A stretch of 64,000 bases of DNA from an uncultured Actinomycetes bacterium (GCA_963841455.1 CAWJCU010000002.1:121770-185769); one strand, 5' to 3'. Shown: positions 45,667-62,887, counted from the first letter of the stretch. Translations and numbers: made by a program. Notes: a model not told the origin generated them from the sequence alone.

Positions 45667-47330
<1,664 letters not shown>

Positions 47331-47380
47331 CTAGCTGGGCTCCCTCGTCTTCCTCATTCGCATTGGTCCAGGAACGCTAG

Positions 47381-47442
47381 TCACTTGCGGCGGCTACGCC
47401 GCCTTACATGCCTCCTTCGTGGCTAAAGCCACTCACCGCCAT
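47381..47442 (-). repeat. two-hairpin intergenic element, copy A (atpH|atpA spacer)
   Basis: RNA sense: AUGGCGGUGAGUGGCUUUAGCCACGAAGGAGGCAUGUAAGGCGGCGUAGCCGCCGCAAGUGA. hp1 is GUGGC/GCCAC and hp2 is GGCGGC/GCCGCC. Confidence 0.8.
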
Positions 47443-47979
47443 CTATGCCGCCTGTGCGACCTCACGCCGCACGCGCTCGAGCTTGCTCCGCACGCTGGCG
47501 TCGAAGATCATGTTGCCGACCCGCAGGACCAGGCCGCCGAGGACGTCCTCATCGACCACGGCTTGGAGGTCGATCTCGCGGCCGGTGCGCTTTTCGATCT
47601 CGCCGCCGATCCGCTTCAGGAGCTCGTCGTCGAGCTCGATCGCGCTCGTCACGGTCACCTCGAGGCGCTTGCGGGCCTCGGCCCACAGCTCGTCGAAGAT
47701 GCTGCGGATGGTGAAGATCGCCGGCATTCGGTGCTTCTCCGCCAGCAGCTCGAGGAAGTTCACGAGCTCCGGCTCGGCGCCAACGAACGCCTTCGAGATC
47801 CCCTCACCCTTCTCCGTCGAGGTGAAGTAGGGGCTGAAGAAGAACACCTGCAGCTCGCGGTGCTCACTCAGGGCATCGACGACCTGGTCGAGCTGCTCGT
47901 GGATCTCGTCGAGCTTCCCGTTCTCCTGGGCGACCTCGAAGAGGGCGTCGGCGTAGACCCTGGAGATCTCCTCCAGCAA
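47443..47979 (-). CDS. atpH: F0F1 ATP synthase subunit delta
   Basis: OSCP-like 178-aa ORF between atpF and atpA. Confidence 0.85.
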   Translation of the reverse strand: MLEEISRVYADALFEVAQENGKLDEIHEQLDQVVDALSEHRELQVFFFSPYFTSTEKGEGISKAFVGAEPELVNFLELLAEKHRMPAIFTIRSIFDELWAEARKRLEVTVTSAIELDDELLKRIGGEIEKRTGREIDLQAVVDEDVLGGLVLRVGNMIFDASVRSKLERVRREVAQAA

Positions 47980-48561
47980 CTAGCTCGCCTCCTCCGCCTC
48001 GGAGCCGGCCAGGGCCGAGAAGTCGACCTCCGAGAGCGCGTCCTCGATCAGGCGGCGCTGGTCGTCGGCGTCGAGGGCCTTCCGCGTGACCTTCTCGGTG
48101 GCGAGGACCGTGAGGTCCGCGACCTCCTGGCGGATCTTGTCGAGCGAGCGCTTGGTCTCGAGCTCGATGTCGCGCCGCGCGGCCCCAACCAGCTCCTCGC
48201 GCTTCTCCTTGCCCGCGGCAGCCGCCTCGGTGAGGGCGGCCTCCGACGCCTTGCGGCTCCGGGCCACGATCTCGTCGGCCTGATTGCGTGCCTCGGCCAG
48301 TCGCTTGCGGTAGTCGGCGAGCAGCTCGTCGGCCTCCTTGCGCTGCCGCTCCGCGGCCTCGATGTTCTCGCGGATCGCATTCGCGCGCTTGTCGAGCTCG
48401 GCCTGGATTCGCGGCAGCGCCGCGCGGCCGAGCACGAACATCGTGACGCCGAAGACGATCAGCGTCCAGATCATCAGCCCGAGAGCGGGCGAGACGAGGA
48501 AGCTGCCGCTGTCCGACGAGGCCAGCGGCAGAAGCCCGGTGATGTCCGGGAGCGGGATCAA
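47980..48561 (-). CDS. atpF: F0F1 ATP synthase subunit b
   Basis: One TM segment plus a long charged helix. The TTG start overlaps the atpE stop (TTGA). Confidence 0.85.
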
Positions 48562-48836
48562 CTCGGCGTCAGGAAGTAGGCGATGAGGCCGAAGATGAAC
48601 GTGTAGAAGGCGACGGCCTCGGTCAGGGCGAAGCCGAGCCAGCGGATCGCCTGGAGCTCGCCCTTCATCTCGGGCTGCCGGGCGACCGACTCGATCTCCT
48701 TGCCGAAGATAAACCCGATGCCGATTCCGGCTCCGATCGAGCCGAGCCCGGCGCCGACGCCCAGCGCGATCGCCTTTCCGGCGTTTGCGACGCCGGTGTC
48801 GGTGACGCCTGCGGCGAGAGTGAGTGGATCAACCAT
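48558..48836 (-). CDS. atpE: F0F1 ATP synthase subunit c
   Basis: Two-TM hairpin, ARQPE loop, LGFALTEA carboxylate helix. Confidence 0.92.
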
Positions 48837-48860
48837 GGGATCTCCTGTCTTTCTGGTGTC

Positions 48861-49770
48861 TCAATGGCTCGATGCGGTGGCCGCGCCCAGATAGATCGCG
48901 GCCAGGATCGAGAAGATGAACGCCTGAAGGGTCGCGATAAGCACGACCTCGAAGATGAAGAACGCGAACGCCATCGGGAAGGTGATGGCGCCGAGGGCCG
49001 CCACGCCGAGCAGCACGGCGAGGCCGCCGGCCATGAAGAGGATCAGGAGGTGGCCCGCGAGGATGTTTGCGAAGAGCCGCACCGAGAGCGAGATCAGGCG
49101 CACGAAATGCGAGATCACCTCGATCATGAAGATCGCTGCCTTGCCGAAGACGTTCATGTCCTCGAGCCCGGGCGGCAGCCAGCTGCGGAAGTAGGGGATC
49201 ACGCCCTGCGCGCGGATCCCCTGGACGTTGTAGCTGATCCAGACCACGAGGGTGAGGACCAGCGGGATCGAGATGTTCGCCGTCGCCGCGTAGATCGCGA
49301 AGCTCGGCACCTCGAGCCCGAAGATGTCGATCGTCTCGGCGCTGTTGGTCGGCAGCGGGATGTAGCCGAGCATGTTCGAGAACCAGATGAAGAAGAAGAG
49401 AGTCGCGACGAACGGGAACCAGCGCGCGACCATCCCCGGCTCCAGGTTGTCGCCGGTGATCGTGTTGCGGGTCAGGTCGTAGGCGAGCTCCATCGCGGTC
49501 TGGATGCGGTTCGGCTTCTGCTCCATGCGGCGCGCGATCCAGGTCAGGGTGAAGATCGTGAGACCGGCCGCGAGCACCAGGTAGAGCACGGCGCGATTGA
49601 TGCTGAGGTCGATGCCGGCGATGTTGATCGGCACCCACGACTCGAGCTTGAACTCGTTCTGCGGCTTGAACTCGTCGTTCTTCCCGGCGCTGCCGAAGAT
49701 GACCAGCAGCAGGATCACCACGAGCGAAGTAGATGCCGCCGATCAGCAGCAGCTTGCGCTTCGTGCTCAT
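48861..49770 (-). CDS. atpB: F0F1 ATP synthase subunit a (one apparent N-terminal frameshift)
   Basis: The body is ORF 48861..49721 (LSVRLFANILAGH motif). The ATG at 49770 overlaps the atpI-like stop (ATGA) and encodes MSTKRKLLLIGGIYFA in the adjacent frame. This joins naturally to VVILLLVIFGSAGK. Confidence 0.85.
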
Positions 49771-50216
49771 GCCTTATTCCCTTCGGGCTGGGACCACACG
49801 TGAATGATCGCCCGGCTCCCGAGCGAGACCGTGACGAGGACCAGCGAGAGGACGGCGGCCGAGAGGCCGGCCTCCCGGCTCCCGAGCAGCCCTACGAGAA
49901 GGATCGCGAGGGTCACGAGCCACAGGCGCCCGAGGATTGAGGCCGCGAGCATGCCGAGGGCGTTTCGCCGGCCGCCCGACGCGAGCTGCTTGCGTGCCCC
50001 GCGCTCGGCAACGAACTGGATGCCGCGCTGGGCGAGCCAGGCCGCGGCGGCGGCGGCGTATCCGAGCATCGACGCCCCGATGAGCAGGAAGACCGGAAGA
50101 GCGATCGCCAGGACCGCCAGGTCCGCGTAGCCGAGGGCCGCTAGCGCGCGCGACCCCGAGTCGCTGCGGCTCGGCGCCCCGCTAGACCCCTCTAAAGCGA
50201 GCGTGGACAACGGCAA
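49767..50216 (-). CDS. ATP synthase I-like membrane protein
   Basis: 149-aa ORF with four hydrophobic segments, immediately upstream of atpB. Confidence 0.55.
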   Translation of the reverse strand: MPLSTLALEGSSGAPSRSDSGSRALAALGYADLAVLAIALPVFLLIGASMLGYAAAAAAWLAQRGIQFVAERGARKQLASGGRRNALGMLAASILGRLWLVTLAILLVGLLGSREAGLSAAVLSLVLVTVSLGSRAIIHVWSQPEGNKA

Positions 50217-50379
50217 ACCCCACGACGAGGCCCGCGAACAGCCCGCCCAGGCCGAGCGGCACCGCAGCCCCCAGCAGCGAGCCGATCCCGTACCCGGCTG
50301 CCGCGCACCCGACGATCGACGCGATCATCAGCGCTCCGGCGACGGCGGCATCGGCTCTCCCTGGCGGGCTCTCGGTCAC
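50182..50379 (-). CDS. AtpZ/ATPase_gene1-like small membrane protein
   Basis: 65-aa two-TM ORF at the head of the atp operon. Confidence 0.55.
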   Translation of the reverse strand: MTESPPGRADAAVAGALMIASIVGCAAAGYGIGSLLGAAVPLGLGGLFAGLVVGFAVVHARFRGV

Positions 50380-50430
50380 CGGGGATGTCGAACTCCGGGC
50401 CCATGGGACGGACAGCCGCTCGACCGCAAA

Positions 50431-50490
50431 TCAGTTGCGGCGCCTTCGGCGCCTTACATGCTGCTTTCGGGGCAAGCCCCTCACCACCAT
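50431..50490 (-). repeat. two-hairpin intergenic element, copy B (wecA-like|atpZ spacer)
   Basis: RNA sense: AUGGUGGUGAGGGGCUUGCCCCGAAAGCAGCAUGUAAGGCGCCGAAGGCGCCGCAACUGA. hp1 is GGGG(CUUG)CCCC and hp2 is GGCGCC/GGCGCC. Confidence 0.8.
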
Positions 50491-50533
50491 GACTGCCGAG
50501 CGGGGCGGCGAATATATCCGACGCAGGCCGCTG

Positions 50534-51817
50534 TTAGGGGTCGCGCACCGCCTCGAACTCGCCCGTCTCCGGGTCAAGGACCTCGAGCTCGCCGCTCGAC
50601 GGGTCGACGACGGCGAAGGTTCCCGTCTCGAGCTCGCGCGCGACGCCCTCGTCGACGGCCTCCGGCGGCAGGGCCTTCGCCACCCGGAAAAGCTCACGCG
50701 CCCGCTCGCCGCGCAGCTTGAGGATCTCGAGCACCACGACCAGGTAGACGCTCGCGGCGAGGGCGGCGAGCGCGAAGAGGCCGATCACGATTGTCCAGAG
50801 GGCGTCGAAGTGCCCGTGGTTGTCCGAGTACGGCACGAAGCGCAGCGCCAGCGCCAGCGCCGCCAGGATCAGCACCCACCCGTAGAGGTAGGCGAGCGTC
50901 CGGCGCTGGGAGAAGCCGATGTTGGTCATCCGGTGGTGAAAGTGCCAGCGATCGGCCTTGTGGATCGGCTGGCGATACTTGATCCGCTTCGCCACGACGA
51001 AGCCGGTGTCGAGGATCGGCACCGCGAGCACGATCAGCGGGAAGAACAGGGCGACGACCGCGTTCGTCTTGAGCGCGCCCTCGATGGCGATCGCGCCCAG
51101 GAGGTAGCCGAGAAGGCCGGATCCGGTGTCGCCCATGAAGCTCCGGGCCGGCGGGAAGCCATGGCGCAGGAACCCGAGCGCGCCGCCCGCGGCGATCGCG
51201 GCGAGCACGCCGGCGCCGGTTCGCTCGAGGGACAGGGCGATGATGGCCATCGTCACTCCCGAAATGGCGCACACACCGGCGGCGAGGCCGTCGACACCGT
51301 CGGTGAAGTTGATGACGTTGATCACCGCGACGATGCCGAGGATCGTCAGCAGGTGGCTCAGCTCGACCTGCCCGAGCGTCGGCAGGTTCACGATGTCGAC
51401 GGTGTTCGGGTTGACGCCGCCGATGAACGGAAGGGTGAAGGCGCCGACCCGAACTCCGTTGAAGACCGGGATCGCCACGATCACGATCTGGCCGAGCAGC
51501 TTGATCGGCGCGCTCAGCTCGAAGACGTCGTCGAGCACGCCGAGCAGGGCGATTCCCACCGCCCCGGCGAGGATGGCCCGCGTGATCGGCGCCAGCGGGA
51601 GGAAGAGAAGGCCGCAGACGACGACCGCGACGAGGATCGCGAGCCCGCCGAGACGCGGGGTGGGGATCGTGTGCAGGCTGCGCTCGTTCGGGTAGTCGAT
51701 CGCGCCGATCCTCTGGGCGAGGCTCTCCGTCGCCGGCACGAGCGCCCAGCTGATCACGGTCGCCAGCACGAACGCGTAGAGGGCGAAGATCGCCTGCGGG
51801 TTGCCGTTGACGAGCAT
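50534..51817 (-). CDS. wecA: glycosyltransferase family 4 (MraY/WecA-like undecaprenyl-phosphate sugar-1-P transferase)
   Basis: NFTDGVDGLAAG motif, about 11 TM segments, and position upstream of the atp operon as for rfe in mycobacteria. It has an extra acidic C-terminal tail of about 80 aa. Confidence 0.85.
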   Translation of the reverse strand: MLVNGNPQAIFALYAFVLATVISWALVPATESLAQRIGAIDYPNERSLHTIPTPRLGGLAILVAVVVCGLLFLPLAPITRAILAGAVGIALLGVLDDVFELSAPIKLLGQIVIVAIPVFNGVRVGAFTLPFIGGVNPNTVDIVNLPTLGQVELSHLLTILGIVAVINVINFTDGVDGLAAGVCAISGVTMAIIALSLERTGAGVLAAIAAGGALGFLRHGFPPARSFMGDTGSGLLGYLLGAIAIEGALKTNAVVALFFPLIVLAVPILDTGFVVAKRIKYRQPIHKADRWHFHHRMTNIGFSQRRTLAYLYGWVLILAALALALRFVPYSDNHGHFDALWTIVIGLFALAALAASVYLVVVLEILKLRGERARELFRVAKALPPEAVDEGVARELETGTFAVVDPSSGELEVLDPETGEFEAVRDP

Positions 51818-51821
51818 TAGG

Positions 51822-52833
51822 TCATCTTCCCGTCGCGGCCAGGACGGCGTCGACCAGGAGCTGCGGGTCGCGAGGCTCGCGGACCCCGATCGGCTCGCTT
51901 CGCTTGCGGAGCTCGAGAGCCTTGGGATCGGAGAGGACGCGCATGCGCCCGGCGGAGATCAGGGCCTCGTCGACGGCCCCCATCCTGCCGCTGAAGAGCG
52001 TCCACACAGGGGTTCCCAACGCCACGGCCTCGCGGTTCATCGTCCCGCCCGCACCAACGACGACATCGGCCTGCGCGACGAGGCTCTGGCCGTCGATCGC
52101 CCGCTCGGGAATGATCAGGTTCTCCGCGCCCCGCCGGGAGAGCGCGGCGCGCTGCGAGTCGGTGCGCGGGATCACCACCGCCTGAGCCCCGTCGTCCTCC
52201 GCGAGACGGTCGATCATGCCCTCGTAGACGGGGTTCTCGGCGTGGTAGGCGGAGCTCTCGGGGGGCGGGCGGACCACGGCGATCACGCGCTCGCGCGCAA
52301 GCCCGAGGTCGTCGATGACGCCCCGGTCCGGCTCCAAGCCGTAGAGGTAGTAGTCCTCCTTGAGGCCGGGATAGCGGAAGAGCTTGCGCGGCGCGGCGCC
52401 CGCGCGCCTCATCGCCTCCGGAGAGATGGCGTCGGGCGCAAGGACGCGGCGAGCGGCGCGAAAGGCGAGCTGGCGCTGAACACCGGCGAACTCGTAATCC
52501 TGCATCTGCACGAGCGGGATTCGGAGCACCGCGGAGACGACGGCGATGTCGACCGATCCGTGGGCGAGAGCGAGGTCGAAACGCTTGGGCCGCGCCCAGC
52601 GGCCTAGGGCGAGGGAGCGGCTGCCGACTGCCGCCGCCTTGGCGCCGCCCCCCGCGCCCGCGTGGCGGCCGATCACCTCATGGTCGATGCCGAGCCGTTC
52701 GAGGATTCCGACCGTCTGCCCGTACTCGCGCGCGGTGACCGAGACCTCGTGGCCTCGCCGCCCGAAGGCGATCGATGATCGGGCGAAGGACGAGCGGATG
52801 GGCGGCAGCCGTGCAGTCGACCCAGACGCGCAT
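51822..52833 (-). CDS. DUF354 family protein (epimerase/glycosyltransferase-like); one apparent frameshift
   Basis: The body is ORF 51822..52676. The ATG at 52833 encodes MRVWVDCTAAAHPLVLRPIIDRLR in the adjacent frame. The body frame reads GHEVSVTAREYGQTVGILERLGIDHEVIGRH just upstream of its GTG. Confidence 0.7.
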
Positions 52834-52895
52834 CACTTGCGGGCGCCTTCGGCGCCCTTACCTGCTGCTTTCCGGGCAAAGCCCCTCACCGACAT
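52833..52895 (-). repeat. two-hairpin intergenic element, copy C (PLP enzyme|DUF354 spacer)
   Basis: RNA sense: AUGUCGGUGAGGGGCUUUGCCCGGAAAGCAGCAGGUAAGGGCGCCGAAGGCGCCCGCAAGUGA. The terminal UGA overlaps the AUG of DUF354. Confidence 0.8.
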
Positions 52896-52906
52896 ACGCG
52901 CCCAGC

Positions 52907-53888
52907 CTAGGTGGCGGGTCGGTAGGTATGCCAGTACAGCACCGGGCCGTCGCCGAACCGGCCCTCGCGGTTAAGCGCGAGGAGGCCCGCAACAGCCTTC
53001 GCGGTGTATACGGGCTCGAGCTCGACGCCCTCGCGGTCGCGCAGAAGCTCGAGGGCGGCGGCGCCCTCCGATGTGGGGTGGCCGTAGCCCGGGCCGAGCC
53101 AGGCGGTCTCCACGGTGACATCGGCGGGCAGCGGGGCTTCGGCGGGCACGCCGTGCCGAGAGAGGAGGCGCGCCGTGCGCGCCGCGAGGCGCGCCACCCG
53201 GCGTGCGTCGAGCTTGATCAGGTCGTTCACGAGGACGCATACCAGGTGCGTGCGAAGGCCCGCGAGCTCGAGCCCGGCGGCGAGGCCGGCCGCCGTGCCT
53301 CCGCTTCCCAGCGCGACGACCGCGTGCGAGGGCTCGGGGATCTCGCCGCCTCGCACCTGCTCGGCGAGCTCGCAGGCCGCGTCCACGTAGCCCGACGCAG
53401 CCGCGCGGCACCGAGCCACCCGGCGGGATCGCATAGGGGCGGTCGACCGGCTGCGGCCTCGCGGGCGACGAGTAGCGCCGCCGAGCGCCACTGCCCGGCG
53501 CACTCCGCCGACGTGGTGCAGCTCCGCCCCGACTCCCGCGGAGCCTCTCGTGCTGCGCGCGCACGTGCTCGTCGATCGGCTGCGGCACGAGGACGAGGAT
53601 CGGCCGGATGCCGAGGCGCCGCGCCGCCCGCGCCGTGGTGAGGCCGTGGTTCGTCCCGAGGGCGCCGCCGGTGACGACGCTCCGGCTTCGCCGCCGGCGA
53701 GCCTCGCCGAGAAGCCACTCGAGCTTTCTGGCCTTGTTGCCGCCGAGCTCGCTGTAGGCGCCGTCGTCCTTGATCCAGACGGGCGCGCGGCCGCCCTCCG
53801 CGCCGAGCCTCTCGAGCTCGCGCACGGGCGTCGGCCCGCCGCCGAGCTCGACCCGGGGAAGCTCAAGGGCGGACAGGGGCCCGCTCAA
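52907..53888 (-). pseudogene. PLP-dependent ACC deaminase/D-cysteine desulfhydrase family protein, several frameshifts
   Basis: Successive frames read [22 protein letters not shown]...[23 protein letters not shown]...[12 protein letters not shown], then GAELHHVGG, then [14 protein letters not shown], then [12 protein letters not shown]...[11 protein letters not shown]...[10 protein letters not shown]...YWHTYRPAT and the stop. Confidence 0.65.
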
Positions 53889-54647
53889 GCGCAGGTTGGC
53901 CGCTTCGACGGAGCTGACCGCCTTCGCCGAGCCGGGGCCGACGTGGAAGGCGAGCGGGTTGGGGCTCGACGGAACGTCGAGCGGCTTCCCGTTCGCGGTG
54001 ATCTCCGCCTCGCCGTTGCCGAGGCCGAGCTGGAAGCCCGCCGCCTTGAACGGTCCCTGGTCGTCGCCCGCCGCGAGGATCTGGCCGTTCACGAGGCGCT
54101 TGCCGGAGAGGTCGACGAGGCAGACCCAGACCGTTCCGGTCGGGCTGATCTCGATCGAGGCCTTCGTCGGCTCGGGGGGCGGCTTCGGTGGGTGGAGTGG
54201 CTGTGCTGATGGCGCCTGCGCGTGCTGCGCGCGGCTGCCCTGCGTGCCGGCCGTCTCCTTGCCGCCGGAGCCGCCGATCTGCCCGATGACGAAGAGCACG
54301 GCGAGGACGGCCACGACCGCGCCGGCGGCGACGAGCACTCCCCGCGAGGGGAAACCCGCCCCGCCGGGCACGGCGGGCGACGGGTCGGCGCTCCTCGGCG
54401 GGCGTGGCGTCGCTCGTCGCCCACCGTCCGTCGGAACTCCTCGACGAGGGCGTCGGCGTCGAGGCCGAGGTAGGAGGCGTAGGTCCGGAGGAACCCGCGC
54501 GCGTACGCCGGCGCCGGGAGGGCGCTCCAGTCCTCGGCCTCCAGCGCCCGCAGGTACCGGACGCGGATCTTGGTCGCGTCGGAGACCTCGTCGAGAGCCG
54601 AGGCCGCGCTCCGTGCGCGCTCGGCGAAGGCTTTCGCCGATCGGCAT
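53889..54647 (-). pseudogene. RodZ-like HTH / DUF4115 membrane protein, frameshifted; 3' end undefined
   Basis: Starts ATG 54647 [17 protein letters not shown]. It shifts to [56 protein letters not shown]. It returns for the TM segment [19 protein letters not shown] and the C-terminal [26 protein letters not shown]...[10 protein letters not shown]. There is no in-frame stop before the next gene. Confidence 0.6.
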
Positions 54648-54703
54648 AGCGTGGATTCTCGCCCCTAAAGGGGCGAGGCGCCGGGCGGAAGGGACCGCGC
54701 AGC

Positions 54704-55976
54704 CTAGGCGTGGGCGGGCGAGAGCTGCTCGTAGAGCGGGTATCGCTCCATCAGCGCGCGCGGTGCGCTCGCGCAGCGAGTCGCGCTCGTCCTCGAAGCG
54801 GTCCGACAGCGCGACGCAGACCACGTCGGCGATCTCGCGGAGGTCGTCCTCGACCAGGCCGCGAGTGGTCAGCGCCGGCGTCCCGATCCGCAGGCCGGAA
54901 GGGTTCATCGGCGGGCGCTCGTCGAACGGGATCGCGTTGCGGTTGACGGTGATCCCGACCTCCTCGAGGCGGCTCTCCGCGGTCTTGCCGTCGAGGCCGG
55001 TCGAGCCGAGGTCGACGAGCACGAGGTGGACGTCGGTGCCGCCGGTCAGCACGTCGACCCCGCCGGCGATCGAGCCCCTCGGCGAAGGCCTTCGCGTTGG
55101 CGATCGTCTGGCGCTGGCGGGCGCGGAACTCCTCCGTCTGAGCGAGGCCGAGCGCCACCGCCTTGGCGGCGATCACGTGCATGAGGGGGCCGCCCTGCTG
55201 CCCGGGGAACACGGAGCGGTCGATGTCCTTCTGGAGCTCCTCGGTGCACAGGATCATCCCGCTGCGCGGCCCGCAGAGGGTCTTGTGGATCGTCGTCGTG
55301 ACCACGTCGGCGTGCGGGCACCGGGCTCGGATGCTCGCCCGCGGCGACGAGGCCGGCGAAGTGAGCCATGTCGACCATGAGGCTGCGCGCCGACGGAGTC
55401 GGCGATCTCGCGGAAGGCCGCGAAGTCGAGATGGCGCGAGTATGCCGACCAACCGGCGACGATCACCTTCGGCCGGTGCTCGTGCGCGAGCCGCTCGACC
55501 TCCTCCATGTCGCAGCGGAGGTCCTCGCGGCGGACGTGGTAGGCGACCACGTCGTAGAGGCGGCCCGAGACGTTCAGCTTCATCCCGTGCGTGAGGTGGC
55601 CGCCGTGGTCGAGCGCCATCCCCATGATCGTGTCGCCGGGCTCGAGCATCGCCATGTAGGCGGCGTTGTTGGCCTGCGCGCCCGCGTGCGGCTGGACGTT
55701 CGCGTGCTCGGCGCCGAAGAGCTCCTTCGCGCGGTCGATCGCGAGCTGCTCGGCGACGTCGACCTCCTCGCAGCCGCCGTAGTAGCGGCGGCCCGGATAC
55801 CCCTCGGCGTACTTGTTGGTGAGGACCGAGCCAGTCGCCTCGAGCACCGCGGCGGGGACGAAGTTCTCCGAGGCGATCATCTCGAGCGTCGACTGCTGGC
55901 GGTGGAGCTCGCGCTGGAGCACCTCCGCGATCTGCGGATCGACGTCGGCGAGGGGGGCTGAGTGGAGGTCGGTCAC
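54704..55976 (-). pseudogene. glyA: serine hydroxymethyltransferase, at least four apparent +1 frameshifts
   Basis: Begins at GTG 55976 ([39 protein letters not shown]...). It continues as [22 protein letters not shown], then [19 protein letters not shown]...AKAFAEGL, then [14 protein letters not shown]...[15 protein letters not shown], then [16 protein letters not shown] and the stop. These pieces lie in five successive frames spread over ORFs 55254..57101, 55046..55378, 54751..56082 and 52971..55052. Confidence 0.85.
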
Positions 55977-56018
55977 CGCACTGCAGCTTATGACACGCGT
56001 CGGCGCCCGGCGACTTAT

Positions 56019-56032
56019 TGAACGATCGTTCA
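56019..56032. promoter_or_regulatory. perfect 14-bp palindrome TGAACGATCGTTCA (GAAC-N4-GTTC) in the glyA / R2-like-TetR divergent region
   Basis: Read directly from the sequence. It lies in the only AT-richer patch between GTG 55976 (glyA) and ATG 56085 (R2-like). Confidence 0.5.
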
Positions 56033-56084
56033 GTAATTGTGTTACGGTGCCGCCGAAGCGCACCCCGCCACGAGAGGAGCACAC

Positions 56085-57050
56085 ATGAGCATCAGCGAAG
56101 TCGAGCCCGAGCTGAAGACCGAGGACGAGGCCCTGTCGGTCCTCATGGACGGCGACATCGACAAGGTGATGTCGGGTCTCGACCGGATCGTCGAGGCCGC
56201 CCCCTCCTACGAGAAGCTCTTCATGCGCTGGCAGCGCCAGCACTGGTCGACGGAGGACTTCGACTTCACCGAGGACGCTCGGCAGTGGGCGGACCCGGAC
56301 ATGTTCACCGAGGACGAGCGCAGGTTCATCCAGTTCGGCTTCTCCGAGTTCTTCCTCGGCGAGGAGCGCGTCACCGTCGAGCTGCTGCCGTTCGCGCTCG
56401 CCGCGCCGACCCACGAGGCCCAGATCTTCCTCACTACCCAGATCTCCGACGAGGCGAAGCACGTCGTCTTCTGGGATCGCTTCTACCGCGAGGTGCTGAA
56501 GACCGACGCAGATGGCATCGGCGACATGCTCGACAAGCAGCGCTCGGTCATCAACGACGACTGGAAGAAGCTCTTCGACGACATGCTCCACGAGGCCGCC
56601 GAGGACCTGCGAAAGGACCCGAGCGACTTCCCCGCCCTCGTCCGGGGCGTGACGCTCTACATGGTCGTGATCGAGGGGATGCTCGCCCTGACGGCAGCTC
56701 GGTTCATGATCAAGTCGATGCGCGAGCGCAACTGGTTCCCCGGCTTCGTCGCCGGGTTCACGGCGGTCAACCGCGACGAGTCGCGACACGTGGGCTTCGG
56801 GGTCAAGTTCCTCGCCGACGCGATCAAGGACGACTCCGCCAACGCGCGGATCGTCGAGGCGACGCTCAAGGAGGCGCTGCCGGTGGCACCGCTGGTCTTC
56901 GTCCCGCCGTGGGTCGACGACCCGTACGACTTCGACACGCCCTTCTACCACTCGTCCGAGGTGTTCGCGTACGCCGCGAAGTCGCTGTCGAAGAAGCTCG
57001 CGGCGATGGGCCTCGACCCGGCGATGCTGGCCGAGGGCGCCCCAGCTTGA
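56085..57050 (+). CDS. ribonucleotide reductase R2-like ferritin-fold di-metal carboxylate protein
   Basis: Two EXXH motifs (DEAKH, DESRH) plus a glutamate in VIEGM. ATG 56085 is preceded by GAGAGGAG. No nrdA/nrdE partner is present in the window. Confidence 0.75.
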
Positions 57051-57664
57051 GCGTCGATAGACCGCCGAGCCGGGGCGCGCGCGCCCCGGCCGGCCGTCCA
57101 CGGGCGCTCGCGAGCGGATCCTCGCGGCCGGCTACGAGACCCTGCTTGCCGACGGCTACGCGGGCCTCACGATGGCGAAGGTCGCGCTGCGCGCGGGCGA
57201 GAGCAAGGCGCTGATCTCCTACCACTTCGGCTCCAAGCAGGGCTTGGTCGCGGCCGCCGCCCGGCAGGTGGGCGACGAGATCACGGCCGAGGTGCTCGCC
57301 GGGATCGGCGTGCCGCCGAGCGTCGAGGCGATCGTCGAGGGCGCGGCCGCCGGCGTGCGGCGGATCCTCGACCGCGACGAGCGCATCGCCCGCGCCTACT
57401 TCGACCTCAACGCCGTCTCGGTCGTGGAGGAGGACGTGCGCGCGATCCTGCGCGAGGTGAAGGACCGCTGGCGCGAGGTCATCGGCGAGCTCCTGCGCTC
57501 GGCGGGTGTCGAGCGCCGTCGCATCGGCACCGCGGTGATGCTGATCATGGCCGGCCTCGAGGGACTCACCCTCGAGCGGATCGAGCGCGGCGAGACGGCG
57601 GAGCTGGCAAAGGCGCGAAAGCTGTTCGTCGACTCGGTCGCCGAACGCGCGGTCTGCGGCCTAG
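57047..57664 (+). pseudogene. TetR-family transcriptional regulator, frame disrupted at both ends
   Basis: The HTH core [46 protein letters not shown] has no start codon in its own frame. The TTG at 57047 (TTGA overlap with the R2-like stop) encodes [13 protein letters not shown] in the adjacent frame. The core frame then lacks a stop until 58308, whereas the adjacent frame stops at 57662-57664. Confidence 0.6.
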
Positions 57665-58110
57665 GGAAGCTCGCCGGCCTCGATCTCCTCGAGCTGCTTC
57701 ACGCGGCGCTCGTGTCGGCCGCCCTCGAACTCGGTCGCGAACCAGACTTTCACGATCTCCTCGGCGAGGCCCGTGCCGACGACCCGCGCGCCCATCGAGA
57801 GGACGTTCGCGTCGTTGTGCAGCCGCGCGAAGCGAGCCGTGTAGAGGTCGTTGCAAAGCGAGGCACGGGCGCCGCGCACCTTGTTCGCGGCGAGCTGCTC
57901 GCCCTGTCCGGAGCCCCCGATCACGATGCCGCGCTCGGCGTTTCCGGCGACGACCTCGCGGGCGACGCCCGAGCAGATCGGCGGGTAGTCGACGGGCTCG
58001 GTGGAATCGGTGCCGAGGTCGATGATCTCGTGGCCGTCCGCCTCGAGCAGGCCCTTGACGTGCTCCTTGAGCTCGAACCCCGCGTGGTCGGCGCCGATCG
58101 CGATCCTCAT
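57661..58110 (-). CDS. rpiB: ribose-5-phosphate isomerase B
   Basis: MRIAIGADHAGFELKEH...GIVIGGSGQGEQLAANK; 149 aa, intact. Confidence 0.92.
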   Translation of the reverse strand: MRIAIGADHAGFELKEHVKGLLEADGHEIIDLGTDSTEPVDYPPICSGVAREVVAGNAERGIVIGGSGQGEQLAANKVRGARASLCNDLYTARFARLHNDANVLSMGARVVGTGLAEEIVKVWFATEFEGGRHERRVKQLEEIEAGELP

Positions 58111-58128
58111 GGCGAGGGCGACGATAAA

Positions 58129-58193
58129 CCATTGAGGGCGCCACAGGCGTCCTTACACGCTACTTTCGGTGCTAAAGCCCCTCACCGGAATAC
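58129..58193 (-). repeat. two-hairpin intergenic element, copy D (tsaC|rpiB spacer)
   Basis: RNA sense: GUAUUCCGGUGAGGGGCUUUAGCACCGAAAGUAGCGUGUAAGGACGCCUGUGGCGCCCUCAAUGG. Each stem has one mismatch. Confidence 0.75.
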
Positions 58194-58823
58194 CCGCCAA
58201 CCGTTCCGCGACCTCTTGATCGGCGAGGGCACCCTCTCGAAGGATCGCCCAGCCCCCGCCGGCGTCGAGATCCGTGAGGTCGATGACGGTGGACGGCAAG
58301 CCCGGTGAGCTCGCCGCCGTCGATGGCCAGGTCCACCCCGGCGGCGATCGCGGGATCGACGTCGGCGAAGCTCGCCGGCGCTTCGTCCCCGCTCCGGTTG
58401 GCGCTCGTCTGGAAGATCGGGGTGCCGGCGCCGGCCAGCGGCCCCTCGATGAGGCGGATCCCAAGCCGCTCGGGTGTCGCCCGGCACGCGAGTGGATAGT
58501 GATGCGCCGGATTGTCGACGACGAGGGTGACCGGGCCGGGCATGAGCGCCGCGACGGCCCGCCGTGTCGCCGGGCCCATGTCCGCGAGGAGCTCGCGCAT
58601 CATCAGCGGGTCGAAGTACATGACCGCCGAGGGCTTGCCGTCGTCGCGTCCCTTGATCTCGTGGATGCGCTCGATCGCCCCGCCGTTCAGCGGGTCGCAG
58701 GCGAGCCCGTAGAGACCGTCGGCCGGAAAGAGCGCGACGCCGCCGTTCGTCACGCACCGCTCGAGGGCCCGGCGGGCGGCCGCCGCGCCGTCGCGCTCGA
58801 TCGCGACGAGCTCCCGGCGCCAT
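58153..58823 (-). pseudogene. tsaC: L-threonylcarbamoyladenylate synthase (TsaC/YrdC/Sua5 family), two apparent +1 frameshifts
   Basis: Starts at ATG 58823 (MAP). It shifts to ELVAIERDGAAAARRALERCVTNGGVALFPADGLYGLACDP...IFQTSANRSGDE...IDGGELTGL, then to PSTVIDLTDLDAGGGWAILREGA...; the stop is the UAA inside repeat copy D. Confidence 0.75.
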
Positions 58824-59677
58824 CAGCGACGTCCGAGGACGACGCGCTCGATTCCGGCGAGGTCACGGCGGCGCTCGGCGCGGGTGAAGCCGGCCTCGCA
58901 CATGAGGCCCTCCACCTCGTCCGCTTGGCCCAGGCCGACCTCCAGAGCGATCGAATCGCAATTCAGCGAGGAAGCACAGGAGGTCGCGGATGGGTCCGAG
59001 GCCGTCGGGGCCTCCGAGAAGAGCCTCTTTCGGCTCGAAGTCGCGGATCTCCGGTTGGAGCGTTGCCCAGTCGCCATCAGGGACGTAGGGCAGATTGGCC
59101 ACGACGAGGTCAGAGAACTCGGCCGTTTGGCGCTTTTCGGGTGCTATGGACCCAAAAGGCGCCAATGCGAAGGAAGCTCGATCGGCGAGACCCAGACGTT
59201 CCGCGTTGCCGCGCGCCACATCGAGCGCGCCCGGCGCTCGTGTCCGTCCCCCTGACTTCGACGTGCGGCAACTCATCGGCCACCGCCAGCGCAACGGCCC
59301 CGCTGCCGGTACCTACGTCGACGACCGGAAGCAGGCCCGAGCTCCAACGCCACCTCGACCAGCAACTCCGTCTCGGGCCGCGGAATGAGCACCCGTCGAT
59401 CAACCTCCAGCTCGATCCGCCGGAACCACTTGCGCCCGGCGATGTACGCGACCGGCTCGCGCCGGAGGCGCCGCCGCACCATCGCCCCAAAGCGCCGTGC
59501 GGCTTCGGGGCCCACCCCCTCCTCGCTGCCCGCGCGAAGCGCGGCGGCATCGGCCGCCATCGCCTCCGCCAGCAGCACCTCGGCATCGAGCCGCGGCGTA
59601 CCGACGCCGGCGGCGGCAAGGGCGTCCGCTGCGGCGCCGAGCGCCTCCCCGACCTTTCCCGCGGCGACCGGGCTCAC
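58823..59677 (-). pseudogene. prmC: peptide chain release factor N5-glutamine methyltransferase, three apparent +1 frameshifts
   Basis: Begins at GTG 59677 (...EPVAYIAGRKWFRRIELEVDRRVLIPRPETELLVE). It continues VVDVGTGSGAVALAVADELP, then LVVANLPYVP (NPPY-type motif)...EPKEALLGGPDGL, then the C-terminus ...LAGIERVVLGRR. Total length is 855 nt, a multiple of 3. Confidence 0.8.
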
Positions 59678-59684
59678 GCCGAGC

Positions 59685-60755
59685 TCACGACACGCCGGTC
59701 TGCGCTTCGAGCCGTGCGCGCTTCTCCTCCGCGGCGAGCGCCTCGGTGAACTCGTCGAGGCGGCCGCCGAGGACGCCCTCCAGGTCGTGCGAGGTGACCT
59801 TGACGCGATGATCGGTCACGCGGCCCTGGGGGTAGTTGTAGGTGCGGATCTTCTCCGAGCGCTCGCCGGTGCCCACCTGCGCGCGCCGATCGGCGGCGAT
59901 CTCCGCCCGCCGCCGGGCGAGCTCCTGCTCGTACAGCCGGGCCCGCAACACGCGCATCGCCTTTTCGCGGTTCTGAAGCTGTGACTTCTCGTCCTGCATC
60001 GACACGACGATTCCGCTCGGCTTGTGGGTGATGCGGACGGCGGAGTCGGTGGTGTTCACCGACTGCCCCCCGGGCCCCGAGGAGCGGTAGACGTCGATCT
60101 GGAGGTCGTTCGGCTCGATCTCGAGCTCCACCTCCTCCGCCTCCGGCAGGACCGCGACCGTCGCGGTGGAGGTGTGGATCCGGCCCTGCGACTCGGTCTT
60201 CGGCACCCGCTGGACGCGGTGCGTCCCGCCCTCGTACTTGAAGACCGAGTAGGCGCCGTCGCCCTTGATCTCGAAGGTCACCTCCTTGAACCCGCCGACC
60301 TCGGCCGGCGAGGCGGAGAGATGCTCGACCTGGAAGCCGCGCCCCTCGGCGTAGCGCGCGAGCATTTTCTCGAGGTCGCCTGCGAAGAGCGCTGCCTCGT
60401 CTCCCCCAGTGCCCGCGCGAATCTCGACGATGACGTTCTTCGAGTCGTTGGGGTCGCGTTCCACCATGGCCAGGCGGATCCGCTCCGCAAGCTCCTCGAG
60501 CCGGGCGGGGCCGTCGGCGACCAGCGCCCTCAGCTCGGGGTCGTCGCCGTCCTCGTCGAGCATCTCCCTCGCCCCGTCGAGATCGTCGCGCAGACGGGCG
60601 TACTCGACGGCCAGACCATGCGCCGGCTCGAGCTCGCGGTAGGCGCGGGCCACCTCCGCGTAGCGCTCACGATCGCCGATCACCGTCGGGTCGGCCATGT
60701 CGCGCTCGAGCTCGGAGTAGCGGCTGGAAATCTGCTCGACGAGGTTGTCGATCAT
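59685..60755 (-). CDS. prfA: peptide chain release factor 1
   Basis: GGQ motif (SSGPGGQSVNTT), PxT-type region, 356 aa from the internal ATG at 60755. Confidence 0.97.
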   Translation of the reverse strand: MIDNLVEQISSRYSELERDMADPTVIGDRERYAEVARAYRELEPAHGLAVEYARLRDDLDGAREMLDEDGDDPELRALVADGPARLEELAERIRLAMVERDPNDSKNVIVEIRAGTGGDEAALFAGDLEKMLARYAEGRGFQVEHLSASPAEVGGFKEVTFEIKGDGAYSVFKYEGGTHRVQRVPKTESQGRIHTSTATVAVLPEAEEVELEIEPNDLQIDVYRSSGPGGQSVNTTDSAVRITHKPSGIVVSMQDEKSQLQNREKAMRVLRARLYEQELARRRAEIAADRRAQVGTGERSEKIRTYNYPQGRVTDHRVKVTSHDLEGVLGGRLDEFTEALAAEEKRARLEAQTGVS

Positions 60756-60775
60756 CGATGCGATTATGAGGGGTC

Positions 60776-61558
60776 GTGAGCGCCACGCCGGCCAAGCCGA
60801 CTGCCACTCAGTACGACGACCCCCGCCACAACTACCGTCGCTACTGGGAGGGCCGCGAGTACGAGCACGCGGCCGAGGAGATCGCAATCCGACGTCTGCT
60901 CAAGGGACGCCACTTCGGCCGGGCCGCCGACGTGGGCGGAGGATTCGGGCGCATCAGCCTGCTGCTCTCCGAGTACGCCGACGAGGTGACGCTCGCGGAG
61001 CCCTCCCGCCAGCAGCTCGACCTTGCCGAGGACTTCCTGCAAGGCCACCCCGAGATCGCTCGCCGGCAGATGCAGGCCGATGCCCTCGACTTCCGCGACG
61101 GCTCGCTGGACCTCGTGACGATGGTCCGCGTGATGCACCACCTTCCGGAGCCCCGGGCCGAGCTGCACGAGCTCGCACGAGTCCTCGGGCCAGGGGGGAC
61201 GCTGGTGCTCGAGGTGGCGAACTACGCGCACGCGCGCAACCGGGTGAAGCACGCGCTGAAGCGGCGACCGCTTCCGAGCGAGCCCGTCGACATCCGCTCC
61301 GAGCCGCGCCGCCGTGAGGGGGGCATTCCGTTCGTCAACCACAACCCGCATACGGTGCTCGCGCAGATCGACGAAGCCGGGTTCCGCGTCTCCAGGACGC
61401 TTTCGGTCTCGAACCTGCGCAGCCCGCGGCTCAAGCGGATGCTCCCTGAGGGCCTCATGCTCTCGGCGGAGCGCGTGCTTCAGCCGGCGCTGGCGAGATC
61501 CTGGTTCGGCCCGAGCGCCTTCATCCTGGCCCGCAGGCGCCAAACGCAGGCGCCCTAG
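60776..61558 (+). CDS. class I SAM-dependent methyltransferase
   Basis: ADVGGGFGRISLLL motif I and a GGTLVLEV post-I region. It is the only plus-strand gene inside the rpmE-prfA block. Confidence 0.8.
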   Translation: MSATPAKPTATQYDDPRHNYRRYWEGREYEHAAEEIAIRRLLKGRHFGRAADVGGGFGRISLLLSEYADEVTLAEPSRQQLDLAEDFLQGHPEIARRQMQADALDFRDGSLDLVTMVRVMHHLPEPRAELHELARVLGPGGTLVLEVANYAHARNRVKHALKRRPLPSEPVDIRSEPRRREGGIPFVNHNPHTVLAQIDEAGFRVSRTLSVSNLRSPRLKRMLPEGLMLSAERVLQPALARSWFGPSAFILARRRQTQAP

Positions 61559-62601
61559 GCGACGATCTCGATCTCCTCGCCGGTCGCGCCCGGCGTCTCG
61601 ACCGCAAGCACTGCCTCGAGCGAGGCGATCGCGACCTCGAGCTGGCTTCGGTCCGGCTCGCGGGTCGTGAGGTTCTGGAGCATCAGCCCCGGCCACATGA
61701 CCGCCCGGACCCAGCGCTTGCGGCGGTACTTGCCCGCGAGCTTGATGACCTCGTACGACAGGCCCGCGATGAGCGGGATGCCCAGGACGCGAGTGGCCAC
61801 CAGCCAGTACCAGGCGGGGAGGCCGATGGGCGCGAAGACGAAGATCGCAAGGACCATCACGATCAGCAGAAAGCTCGTGCCGCAGCGCGGATGCAGGCGC
61901 GAGTAGCGCTCGGCGCGCGCCGGTGTAAGGCGGTCCCCGGCCTCGTAGCAGGAGATGGTCTTGTGCTCGGCTCCGTGGTACTCGAAGACCCGCCGGAGGT
62001 CGCGGACGCGGCTGATCAGCCACAGATAGCCGATGAAGATCGCGGTGCGAAGGAGCCCCTCCACGAGCCAGAACAGGAACGCCGACCCGAGCTGGTCGCG
62101 GATGAGGCTCGTCGCGCCGACCGGCACGACGAAGAAGAGGCCGACCGCGACTGCCAGCGAGAGCACGATCGTCAGGCCCCAGGTGAAGCCCCCGATCTCC
62201 TGCTCCTCCCCCGGCTCGCTGACCTGGGCGTTGGCGGAGATCGCGAGGGCGCGGAAGCCGATCTTCAGCGACTCCGCGAGCGCGACGACCCCCCGGATCA
62301 CTGGGACCCGAAGGATTCGGTGGCGCTTGGCCCACGAGACGAGCGGCTCGGAGGTGACCTCGATCTCGCCGATGGCGCTCGGCGGCGCGTCCTCGGCGAC
62401 CGGCCGACGCACCGCGACCGCCCAGGTCGAGACGCCGCGCATCATCACGCCCTCCAGCACGGCCTGCCCGCCCACCGGGGCGTCGCGATTTGCAACCGGG
62501 AGCCCGTCGGGCATCGGCGCGCGCTGGACGTGCAGCTGACCGTCCTCGGCGGCAGGCGGCCGTTTCGCCGGCGCGGTCGCCTTCGACGCCGCGACGCTCA
62601 C
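61555..62601 (-). CDS. DUF1385 family membrane protein
   Basis: GGQAVLEGVMMRG, YHGAEHKTI and RCGTSF motifs. Its position next to prfA/prmC is typical for this family. Confidence 0.8.
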   Translation of the reverse strand: MSVAASKATAPAKRPPAAEDGQLHVQRAPMPDGLPVANRDAPVGGQAVLEGVMMRGVSTWAVAVRRPVAEDAPPSAIGEIEVTSEPLVSWAKRHRILRVPVIRGVVALAESLKIGFRALAISANAQVSEPGEEQEIGGFTWGLTIVLSLAVAVGLFFVVPVGATSLIRDQLGSAFLFWLVEGLLRTAIFIGYLWLISRVRDLRRVFEYHGAEHKTISCYEAGDRLTPARAERYSRLHPRCGTSFLLIVMVLAIFVFAPIGLPAWYWLVATRVLGIPLIAGLSYEVIKLAGKYRRKRWVRAVMWPGLMLQNLTTREPDRSQLEVAIASLEAVLAVETPGATGEEIEIVA

Positions 62602-62608
62602 GCCAAAT

Positions 62609-62677
62609 CCCCTGCGGGCACCTTAGGTGCCCTTACACGCTTGTTTCGGAGCTAACGCTCCTCAAGGCACACCGCAC
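62609..62677 (-). repeat. two-hairpin intergenic element, copy E (rpmE|DUF1385 spacer)
   Basis: RNA sense: GUGCGGUGUGCCUUGAGGAGCGUUAGCUCCGAAACAAGCGUGUAAGGGCACCUAAGGUGCCCGCAGGGG. hp1 is GGAGC/GCUCC and hp2 is GGGCACC/GGUGCCC. Confidence 0.75.
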
Positions 62678-62680
62678 GAC

Positions 62681-62887
62681 CTACGACCGCCGGCGCGCCG
62701 CGCGGCGCCGGAACCGCTCGACCCGTCCTCCGGTGTCGACGAGCTTCTGCTTGCCCGTGTAGAACGGGTGGCACTCGGAGCAGATCTCCACGTGGAGCTC
62801 TGGCTTGGTCGACCGCGTGTAGAACTCGTTGCCGCACGAACAGCGGACGTGTGCGAGCACATACTCGGGATGGATTCCGGTCTTCAC
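62681..62887 (-). CDS. rpmE: 50S ribosomal protein L31 (Zn-ribbon type)
   Basis: (M)[12 protein letters not shown]...[13 protein letters not shown]; GTG start. Confidence 0.95.

Follow-up and report, generated by a model that had tools for sequence, protein, structure and literature searches.

A dispersed two-hairpin intergenic repeat of Solirubrobacterales-type Actinomycetota whose sense strand may double as a gene junction

Introduction

A 64,000-nucleotide stretch of DNA from an uncultured Actinomycetes bacterium (GCA_963841455.1 CAWJCU010000002.1:121770-185769; hereafter the window, read on one strand and numbered from its first letter) carries, in the cluster of housekeeping genes around rpmE, prfA, glyA and atp, five copies (A to E) of a small intergenic element built from two hairpins, hp1 and hp2, and from conserved unpaired sequence. 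We report here that this unit belongs to a family found throughout Solirubrobacterales-type Actinomycetota and that copying at the level of DNA has brought it, in either orientation, to many unrelated places between genes. On balance we are inclined to regard it as a tolerated and anciently established dispersed repeat of the whole clade, whose sense strand doubles as a gene junction. The five copies were first noticed in an initial annotation of the window, which took them for a structured RNA module peculiar to this gene cluster; the observation holds, and part of the interpretation is borne out.

Much is known of small dispersed repeats from proteobacteria (REP/BIME, REPIN-RAYT) and from mycobacteria (MIRU), but they are essentially unexplored in the Thermoleophilia/Solirubrobacterales, which are abundant soil bacteria that have rarely been cultured. 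A search of the literature on repeats or structured RNAs in Solirubrobacter, Conexibacter and the Thermoleophilia found nothing relevant.

Results

A clade-wide family at unrelated intergenic sites

The family comprises at least ~190 copies, from more than 30 Solirubrobacterales-type metagenome-assembled genomes (MAGs) plus ~95 soil metagenome contigs. A scan of one genome per GTDB species with a degenerate pattern returned at least 111 stretches, at least ~90 being true copies from over 30 assemblies that are labelled Solirubrobacterales, 'uncultured Actinomycetes' or Actinomycetota, with at least 11 loci in the richest assembly; the other stretches came from other phyla and were chance matches without hairpins. 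Metagenome contigs, scanned with a second pattern anchored on hp1 and the linker that follows it, gave 99 stretches and 94 unique copies, mostly on JGI (Ga-prefixed) contigs, and neither plasmids (PLSDB) nor viral contigs (IMG/VR) held a match to the element. Both patterns fixed part of the sequence, the first one, with its filter, demanding part of hp1 and leaving hp2 unconstrained. Merging arrays and clustering orthologous sites by tblastx of their flanks, with the genome-scan part represented by the matches listed, gave a set of 184 sites in 132 independent clusters. All 184 lie at gene ends or between genes, so that the unit is extragenic and multi-copy in the way that REPs are. The family is therefore genome-wide and clade-wide, and the earlier idea that it is confined to a housekeeping cluster has to be given up.

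The coding strand of the flanks was called with a codon log-odds table trained on long open reading frames (ORFs). Among the independent clusters 43 are sense to both neighbouring genes, 16 are antisense to both, 16 lie between convergent and 10 between divergent genes; these 85 clusters with both flanks classified are thus 69% co-directional, 19% convergent and 12% divergent, a split that looks as if spacer types had been drawn at random. In co-directional spacers sense prevails over antisense by 2.7:1 (single copies are 73% sense and ~27% antisense). At 14 sites the element forms head-to-tail arrays of two or three units, with periods of 63-64 or 91 nt, all of them sense to the upstream gene, and no strong inverted pairs of the REPIN doublet type were seen, the multi-copy arrays being head-to-tail in 14 of 14 cases. 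The initial annotation had found the element always in the transcribed orientation, which is true of the five window copies but not of the family.

Gain and loss of the unit can be followed at single junctions by comparing the window with a close relative (locus L005, assembly CAVYUG) whose atp proteins share 87-100% identity with the window's. Copy B is common to the two, in a spacer that is 93% identical. Between atpH and atpA the relative has an empty site (...GGCC TAG G TAG CGTT...), as against a 62-nt insert in the window, from ATGGCGG-TGAG to GCAAGTGA; between atpG and atpD it is the relative that holds a copy and the window that has an 18-nt spacer. A 5' arm and TGAG are part of the atpH-atpA insert itself, next to which no duplicated target can be seen. 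Since the empty site shows that TGAG arrived with the insert, TGAG was rejected as a pre-existing target of the IS200 kind. A target-site duplication was rejected as well: copy-specific flanking repeats of at least 7 nt accompany 8.7% of copies against 2.0% of controls, but this weak excess is accounted for mostly by arrays or by the first bases of a partial second unit.

In other genomes the same cluster has copies at other junctions, such as DUF354-wecA in L025 and L055, and every copy in this cluster is sense. Elsewhere the surroundings of a copy hold about one extra site per 132 kb, so that the five sites within 15.3 kb of the window mark a real hot spot (P ~7e-6 given one copy, for a region picked post hoc), and orthologous clusters in other genomes also hold several copies. 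The element strand has a small excess of G regardless of the coding strand (+0.0057 +/- 0.0019); in most contigs with several copies their orientation is mixed, and the skew of the window itself is ~0, which leaves a link to the replication strand without backing at the scale of contigs.

Anatomy of the unit

In an alignment of 89 sequences, complemented by logos of the flanks, the unit of ~75 nt consists of a 5' arm, TGAG, hp1, a linker, hp2 and a tail. The 5' arm (C-R-G-G-n-n-T-T-n-n-G-R) is weak, at 0.2-0.5 bits per position; TGAG is near-invariant, being present in 92 of the 94 copies for which the retrieval pattern left it free. Hairpin hp1 has 5 bp (G-G-N-G-C / G-C-N'-C-C) and the loop TTTA in 151 of 184 copies, and is followed by the unpaired conserved linker CGAAAGCAGC-RTG-TAAGG. 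Hairpin hp2 has 6-7 bp and a GNA triloop (GAA, GCA or GGA in 148 of 182 copies) closed by C-G, and the tail, GCAAG-nn-ATTC-A, is well conserved. As the 5' arm repeats the tail in degenerate form and in direct orientation, the unit has no terminal inverted repeats, in line with the earlier opinion that it is not a MITE (a miniature transposable element with inverted repeats).

Pairing in this structure amounts to 98.7% of cells and 6 of the 12 pairs show double changes, a level of covariation reached by 0 of 500 shuffles, and sliding the partner lowers pairing to 34-47%. Position 3 of hp1 occurs as G-C (56), A-U (26), U-A (4) and C-G (1), and one pair of hp2 as C-G (60) or G-C (27). RNAalifold independently predicts both hairpins and nothing further: it gave no pseudoknot between loop and linker (CUUUA with UAAGG) and no k-turn of UGA/GAA, patterns to which covariation is blind here because each retrieval pattern fixed one partner. 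The compensatory changes originally proposed for both stems are thus seen across the family. Genome-wide copies in both orientations and inside genes, without significant covariation, had been named beforehand as a finding that would speak against a structured RNA; both orientations are indeed found, but both hairpins covary.

The two DNA strands of the element fold alike, and stem mismatches show no excess of G-T over A-C (8 versus 7 overall, 8 versus 6 in sense sites). A GNA triloop closed by C-G is a type of very stable DNA mini-hairpin, and the presence of such triloops, together with the missing RNA asymmetry, hints that the unit may be recognized on single-stranded DNA.

Mosaic variants are found beside the full unit (Table 1). 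Some are hp1-only units ending ...GCAGCATG-TGCCGGTGGGTATCTC, which include a tandem pair lying antisense in the sucC-sucD spacer; some have a different second module, GTGCAAG-CGCC-GAA-GGCG-CGCGTAAG; and in others a full unit is followed by one to three additional modules of hp2 plus tail.

The five copies in the window

The core GAAAGNAGCRTGTAAGG, allowing up to 3 mismatches, has exactly five matches in the 64 kb, all on the minus strand, compared with a mean of 0.25 in shuffled sequence, and 0 of 100 shuffles reach five. Run with filters off, a covariance model (R1) of 89 family members likewise finds exactly five copies, at 67-76 bits, and since its next match scores only 15 bits, the first 47 kb are confirmed to be free of copies. 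Both searches therefore agree with the five RNA-sense, minus-strand copies, and the model with the lack of further ones, that had been described before. Aligned with one another, the five stretches share a clear block of similarity of 60-70 nt; folding of each copy alone was inconsistent and not significant, and the structure was resolved by the family alignment only.

Direct reading of the copies reproduces the stem sequences previously given for hp1 (copies A, B and E) and hp2 (copies A, B, C and E), as well as the single mismatch in each stem of copy D; in copy C the outer hp1 pair is a G-G mismatch. The motif (A/G)UG-NNN-GUGAG, proposed as the common beginning, fits copies A, B and C but fails for D (AUUCCGGUGAG) and E (UUGAG).

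A scan of the window against Rfam 15 at the gathering threshold returned only Ms_IGR-5, with nothing at the copies, and at E<=10 neither the 47-63 kb region nor a three-copy array in L014 gave a match at the copies; the view that this is no described RNA family stands. So does the view that it is no canonical intrinsic terminator, which was rejected on the grounds that 0 of 4 terminator-like calls in 47-63 kb fall at a copy, that the tails read GCAAGUGAUUCA and that no T-run follows any copy.

Stops and starts at the element

In the sense consensus every frame has a stop codon of its own: TGA (position 0), TAG (position 10, in the loop of hp1) and TAA (position 29). No frame remains open in 147 of 182 sense strands (81%), and the same holds for 12 of 182 antisense strands and for 21% of shuffles matched in composition. 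Among upstream genes read in the sense direction (n=62), 13 have TGAG's TGA as their stop and 5 the TAG of the loop, most of the others ending 3-45 nt upstream. In the window tsaC likewise ends inside the element, both of its candidate frames closing within copy D, at the TGA of TGAG (58184-58182) or at the hp1-loop TAG (58174-58172); the stop of atpH (TAG, 47445-47443) directly adjoins the 5' arm of copy A, and the genes upstream of copies C (PLP-dependent enzyme) and E (rpmE) have their TAG stops at 52909-52907 and 62683-62681.

On the other side, the first possible start of the downstream gene lies between -9 and +7 nt from the 3' end of the element in 22 of 45 sense clusters and in 0 of 16 antisense clusters (Fisher p=2e-4), which places the tail, GCAAGG / GCAGGAG, at Shine-Dalgarno distance; examples of tail and start are cgcaggtgattc ATG, cgcaagttagtca ATG and cgcaaggtattcaac GTG. 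From this geometry we infer that the tail may act as a functional ribosome-binding site. In copy C the ATG of DUF354 (52833-52831) lies within the tail and overlaps a TGA (UGAUG), and in copy E the GTG of DUF1385 (62601-62599) comes 3 nt past the Shine-Dalgarno-like tail; downstream of copies A and D, atpA starts at 47330 and rpiB at 58110.

Judged by this arrangement of stops and starts, the sense strand appears to be a self-contained gene junction, and the geometry would account for its toleration at narrow junctions in operons, mostly in sense. Two further ideas were rejected. Selection of the linker TAA as a stop does not fit the substitutions at this position, which was left free and where TCA (~10) outnumbers TGA (~5), and the notion that the 5' arm was originally the ribosome-binding site of a gene into whose start codon the unit had inserted does not fit the presence of the same arm at antisense sites.

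Orthologous copies are under purifying selection

Purifying selection acts on copies at orthologous sites, which are conserved far better than silent sites. The atpH-atpA site is occupied in 19 loci, where the element always begins right after the atpH stop and has its own signature, with CCGCC or CCGGC in hp2 (a compensatory C-G/G-C switch) and the tail GCAAGAGATTCAAGGAG. For pairs with less than 75% AtpH identity the identity of the element is 0.857, as against 0.594 at four-fold sites (chance 0.43), and some pairs of elements are identical over 66 nt at 66% AtpH identity. In many genomes this spacer has grown to 150-250 nt through repeats of hp2 plus tail after one full unit, each repeat ending AAGGAG-like, ahead of the GTG start of atpA. 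Other orthologous pairs, three antisense ones included, are conserved about as well as the coding flanks, and antisense copies score like sense copies in the model (64.5 versus 63.0). Selection is thus evident, yet without visible specificity for sense RNA.

Search for a mobilizing enzyme

Transposases of the Y1 type were sought with tblastn over the element-selected loci, using two Y1 sequences, and homologues were then fetched. The 1.35 Mb of these loci contain one Y1_Tnp (IS200-like/RAYT) gene, in L020 (Pfam 4.5e-13); its homologues are single-copy and partly syntenic, three of the RAYT-type genes lying at the same spot after sucCD. At five RAYT loci (L020 and L211-L214) the flanks hold other palindromes and no element match above noise, L215 having been searched by the model only. 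Each gene has inverted palindromes of its own on its flanks (in L020, e.g. GTGAGGTACCTGGTACCGG), and a classical REP, AAGGGGTCWGACCCCTT, flanks the RAYT of the element-rich assembly CAWJJU and is dispersed elsewhere in that genome, with no match in the window. No TnpA gene lies next to copies in the element-selected loci, and near the inverted pairs that were checked there is no other transposase, only ordinary metabolic genes.

Table 1. Coordinates of the five window copies and of related features in other loci. Positions of the copies are those of the window; L numbers denote loci.
Feature	Position	Strand	Covariance model (bits)	TGAG	hp1	Linker	hp2	Tail
Matches to core GAAAGNAGCRTGTAAGG	47402-47418, 50452-50468, 52856-52872, 58151-58167, 62631-62647	minus						
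Copy A, atpH-atpA spacer	47372-47443	minus	71	47435-47432	47432-47419 (GUGGC/GCCAC, loop UUUA)	47418-47404	47403-47389 (GGCGGC/GCCGCC, loop GUA)	GCAAGUGACUA 47388-47378
Copy B, spacer between glycosyltransferase-4 (wecA-like) gene and small ORF	50422-50491	minus	73.5	50483-50480	50480-50469 (GGGG/CCCC, loop CUUG)		50453-50439 (GGCGCC/GGCGCC, loop GAA)	GCAACUGAUUU 50438-50428
Copy C, PLP-enzyme-DUF354 spacer	52824-52896	minus	76.1	52888-52885	52885-52873		52857-52841 (GGGCGCC/GGCGCCC, loop GAA)	GCAAGUGAUG 52840-52831
Copy D, tsaC(Sua5)-rpiB spacer	58119-58192	minus	67	58184-58181	58181-58168 (one G-A mismatch)		58152-58136 (one A-C mismatch, loop UGU)	UCAAUGGUUUA 58135-58125
Copy E, rpmE-DUF1385 spacer	62599-62672	minus	74.6	62664-62661	62661-62648 (GGAGC/GCUCC, loop GUUA)		62632-62616 (GGGCACC/GGUGCCC, loop UAA)	GCAGGGGAUUU 62615-62605
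hp1-only or alternative-module variants	L020 5195-5295	minus						
hp1-only or alternative-module variants	L115, L134, L176, L179, L190; L112, L152, L167, L169, L170, L199							
Enlarged atpH-atpA spacers	L044, L047, L091, L095, L116, L184, L208, L209							
RAYT-type Y1 genes in Solirubrobacterales MAGs	L020 6251-6724; L211 5001-5474; L215 4001-4486; also L212, L213, L214							
Copies of REP AAGGGGTCWGACCCCTT	L214 74-126, 3866-3930, 4554-4606; L088 5217-5269							

Genes around the copies

The genes flanking the window copies were named by Pfam, and at each of the five the neighbours are on the same strand, as had been stated; the cluster as a whole, however, is interrupted by a plus-strand gene pair. 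This pair, at 56037-57650 between glyA and rpiB, consists of an ORF resembling ferritin and the RNR small chain and of a TetR-family regulator. Several minus-strand genes of the region (52680-56000 and 58172-58823) are split over frames, glyA/SHMT over three and the PLP-dependent enzyme over two; the N-terminus of DUF354 is in a different frame from the remainder of that gene, and the C-terminus of tsaC is ambiguous. These splits are probably indel errors of a long-read assembly, or else the genes are pseudogenes. Another TetR-family regulator gene (TetR_N + TetR_C_41; 62884-63501, minus strand) lies directly upstream of rpmE on the same strand. Outside the cluster, the Ms_IGR-5 match (51 bits, above gathering; 32241-32408, minus strand) is immediately upstream of the gene for S-adenosylhomocysteine hydrolase (30881-32152), a position that suggests a conserved 5' leader of ahcY.

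Discussion

The unit described here appears to belong to a familiar class, that of small interspersed intergenic repeats, within which its two hairpins, its strong conservation across a clade and its punctuation of translation would make it distinctive. With modest confidence, we take it to be a repeat that was established long ago in Solirubrobacterales-type Actinomycetota and has been tolerated since, its sense strand serving at the same time as a junction between genes. The initial annotation had already noted behaviour like that of REPs, and the dispersed copies, the two orientations, the arrays and the mosaics agree with this.

Copying could be the work of a putative trans-acting factor to which both hairpins and the conserved unpaired bases serve as recognition signals, perhaps while the DNA is single-stranded. 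Once in an mRNA, the module would uncouple the adjacent cistrons, and in either orientation a transcript with two stable hairpins would present a classic barrier to 3' exonucleases. In most copies the linker reads AG↓CAU or AG↓CGU, which fits RN↓CNU, the preferred site of mycobacterial RNase E, an enzyme that cuts single-stranded RNA and whose mapped sites are commoner in intergenic regions (PMC10641625). The single-stranded AG↓CAU between the hairpins might thus be a processing site of the RNase E type that sets the stability of segments of the mRNA: a cut in the linker would yield two fragments, the upstream one with hp1 at its end and the downstream one starting with hp2, followed by the ribosome-binding tail.

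Several observations count against a tolerated repeat with a built-in junction. No mobilizing enzyme was found, the sole Y1 gene in 1.35 Mb and four homologues being bordered by other palindromes; and neither terminal inverted repeats nor a consistent target-site duplication were seen in two comparisons of filled and empty sites and in the flanks. Identity between copies within an assembly (0.771) equals that between assemblies (0.774), which makes the subfamilies older than these genomes and gives no sign of recent bursts or homogenization. Orthologous copies have been kept in both orientations, and a host function fits this at least as well as does a tolerated parasite. The three-frame stops, being shared by descent, count as a single event with a chance expectation of ~21%, and by our estimate RN↓CNU would occur by chance in roughly a third of such linkers. 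Finally, conservation of those parts that the retrieval patterns fixed is partly ascertainment (the cross-check being TGAG, kept in 92 of 94 copies when left free), and gene orientation, stops and starts rest on the codon log-odds heuristic and not on curated annotation.

The dispersed-repeat reading and one in which the host selects the RNA are compatible and do not exclude each other. It is possible, though less likely than not, that the unit has been domesticated as a module of 'operon punctuation', 75 nt long and present at more than 100 junctions, which would combine a stop in any frame, a ribosome-binding site 3' of a stable hairpin, an RNase E-type site and a dedicated protein that recognizes it, and which would be a portable insulator and not a parasite.

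A dedicated cis-regulatory RNA of the host, acting as a site of processing, stability or translation insulation in polycistronic mRNA and dispersed only secondarily by duplication, is the chief alternative but strikes us as rather doubtful. It would account for the 43:16 sense bias in co-directional spacers and for tandem arrays that are sense to the upstream gene in 14 of 14 cases, for the strong conservation of the unpaired linker and tail, and for the retention of the atpH-atpA copy across divergent genomes with its locus-specific signature and compensatory CCGCC/CCGGC switch; in several genomes the element is concentrated in the highly expressed rpmE-prfA-atp cluster, the start codon adjoins a Shine-Dalgarno-like tail and the linker matches RN↓CNU. 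Yet ~27% of co-directional sites are antisense and there are divergent sites too, antisense copies score equally well and are conserved at orthologous sites, the transcribed strand has no excess of G-U (8 versus 6), the linker TAA is more often replaced by TCA than by TGA, and the close relative L005 does without the atpH-atpA copy with no visible harm. The RNA role that the initial annotation had envisaged therefore fares unevenly: a dedicated function is not supported, given the equal conservation of antisense copies and the lack of an excess of G-U over A-C, but translation insulation, one of its suggestions, fits the geometry of stops and Shine-Dalgarno-like tail.

It is improbable that the unit is a REP/REPIN family moved by a RAYT (Y1, HUH) transposase that recognizes GTGAG and hp1 on single-stranded DNA. 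RAYT genes are present in these genomes, single-copy and syntenic, the one in L020 is flanked by GTGAG and a 5-bp hairpin, which is the element's own 5' tag, and the hairpins have GNA triloops; an intergenic location and long vertical persistence have also been reported for REPINs (bioRxiv 10.1101/2021.07.10.451892). But the element flanks 0 of 5 RAYT loci, the RAYT of CAWJJU is flanked by a different, classical dispersed REP, a single RAYT was found in the 1.35 Mb of element-selected loci, the unit has two unlike hairpins joined by a linker, and its arrays are head-to-tail and not inverted doublets.

No greater credence can be given to a role at the level of DNA, as an architectural or protein-binding site (as has been proposed for BIMEs with gyrase or IHF) or as a hairpin without a U-tract that pauses or terminates transcription in either orientation. 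Conservation that is independent of orientation, the absence of an RNA-strand asymmetry and the slight G-richness of the element strand would all agree with it, and long conserved unpaired stretches suit sequence-specific recognition by a protein. The skew is weak, however, and the frequent changes of orientation along single contigs do not suit a replichore rule; a strong terminator in the midst of the atp operon would do harm, and there is no T-run; and the sense bias and the geometry of stops and starts are left unexplained.

That the element is a new small ribozyme or ligand-binding RNA is very improbable indeed: its junction nucleotides are invariant, its distribution is multi-copy and tandem, UGAG-hairpin-CGAAA recalls a hammerhead core and some copies read CUGAUGAG-stem-CGAAAG (L115, L134), but Rfam yields no ribozyme or riboswitch match even at E<=10, conservation is lacking in the bases that precede UGAG, there is no third helix and no supported pseudoknot, and antisense copies are equally conserved. 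A hammerhead in particular, which has three helices around the core CUGANGA...GAAA, was rejected, the resemblance of UGAG-hp1-CGAAA being to the stem II side, with the four preceding bases unconserved, no stem III and no Rfam hammerhead at E<=10.

By analogy, the function of the element would come closest to that of MIRU, and it would also stand near the REP/BIME-REPIN repeats. Like MIRU it is an actinobacterial unit of 50-100 nt that is intergenic and lies inside operons; its head-to-tail arrays, mostly sense to the flanking genes, would be a further likeness, and its design would let an insertion barely disturb the translation of its neighbours. MIRU contains an internal ORF that is translationally coupled to the downstream gene with a fixed overlap (PMC12548453), and copy C of the window has a 21-codon ORF ending UGAUG on the DUF354 start. 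Such an ORF is present in some copies only (copy C, L002 and L103), many units stop at the linker TAA and loop-length variants shift the frame, so that an internal ORF is not conserved in the element, which punctuates by three-frame stops and a Shine-Dalgarno-like tail where MIRU uses a fixed -4 overlap. The MIRU descriptions also set the element apart in other ways, as it comes from an unrelated host clade without known sequence relation and has two covarying GC-rich hairpins; its arrays are sense in 14 of 14 cases and its single copies in 73%, but about 27% of co-directional copies are antisense, and convergent and divergent sites also exist.

REPs are single palindromes of 20-40 bp with a GTAG or CGTC terminal tag, for which mosaic clusters and tandem reiteration have been reported (PMC3733652). 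The element shares with REP and BIME the GC-rich extragenic hairpins at gene ends, the two orientations, the mosaic or tandem clusters and the effects to be expected of hairpins in mRNA. It differs in its length of ~75 nt, its two different hairpins, its conserved linker of 15-17 nt, its TGAG tag and its terminal similarity, which is direct and not inverted; and whereas REPs often form inverted pairs bordering their RAYT, the element borders none of the RAYTs of these genomes, which have REPs of their own.

MITEs and the IS200/IS605 family offer a looser comparison, in that the element is small, non-coding, multi-copy and hairpin-bearing and that its presence or absence differs between relatives. 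Similar hairpins are carried at the ends of IS200/IS605 elements. Unlike a MITE, however, the element has no terminal inverted repeats or regular target duplication, and it departs from IS200/IS605 in that hp1 and hp2 are unlike in sequence and loop and that TGAG came with the insert. Known intercistronic sites of processing or stability (the REP in malEFG, RNase E sites) resemble it in having stable hairpins around a single-stranded stretch, which here fits RN↓CNU; they are individual, locus-specific and without shared sequence, whereas the element is one conserved sequence that recurs between more than 130 unrelated pairs of genes.

The element unites features that are seldom met together: a pair of covarying hairpins, long unpaired stretches that are invariant, conservation across many genomes far above silent sites, and stops and a ribosome-binding tail that flanking genes appear to use. 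Because gene ends and starts fall inside the element, it causes problems of annotation. Were its copying at the level of mobile DNA to explain the family, a new copying mechanism would be implied, as tests for RAYT, IS200-type and terminal-inverted-repeat-type mobility fail. Should instead the action at the level of RNA be what matters, the unit would be a natural and reusable intercistronic insulator or processing site, with a bearing on operon stoichiometry in high-GC bacteria and use as a part for synthetic biology, and if it does punctuate operons, mRNAs such as that of atp would be split into segments of differing stability. On either reading it provides a family ready for a collection of the Rfam or Dfam type and a marker of the clade.

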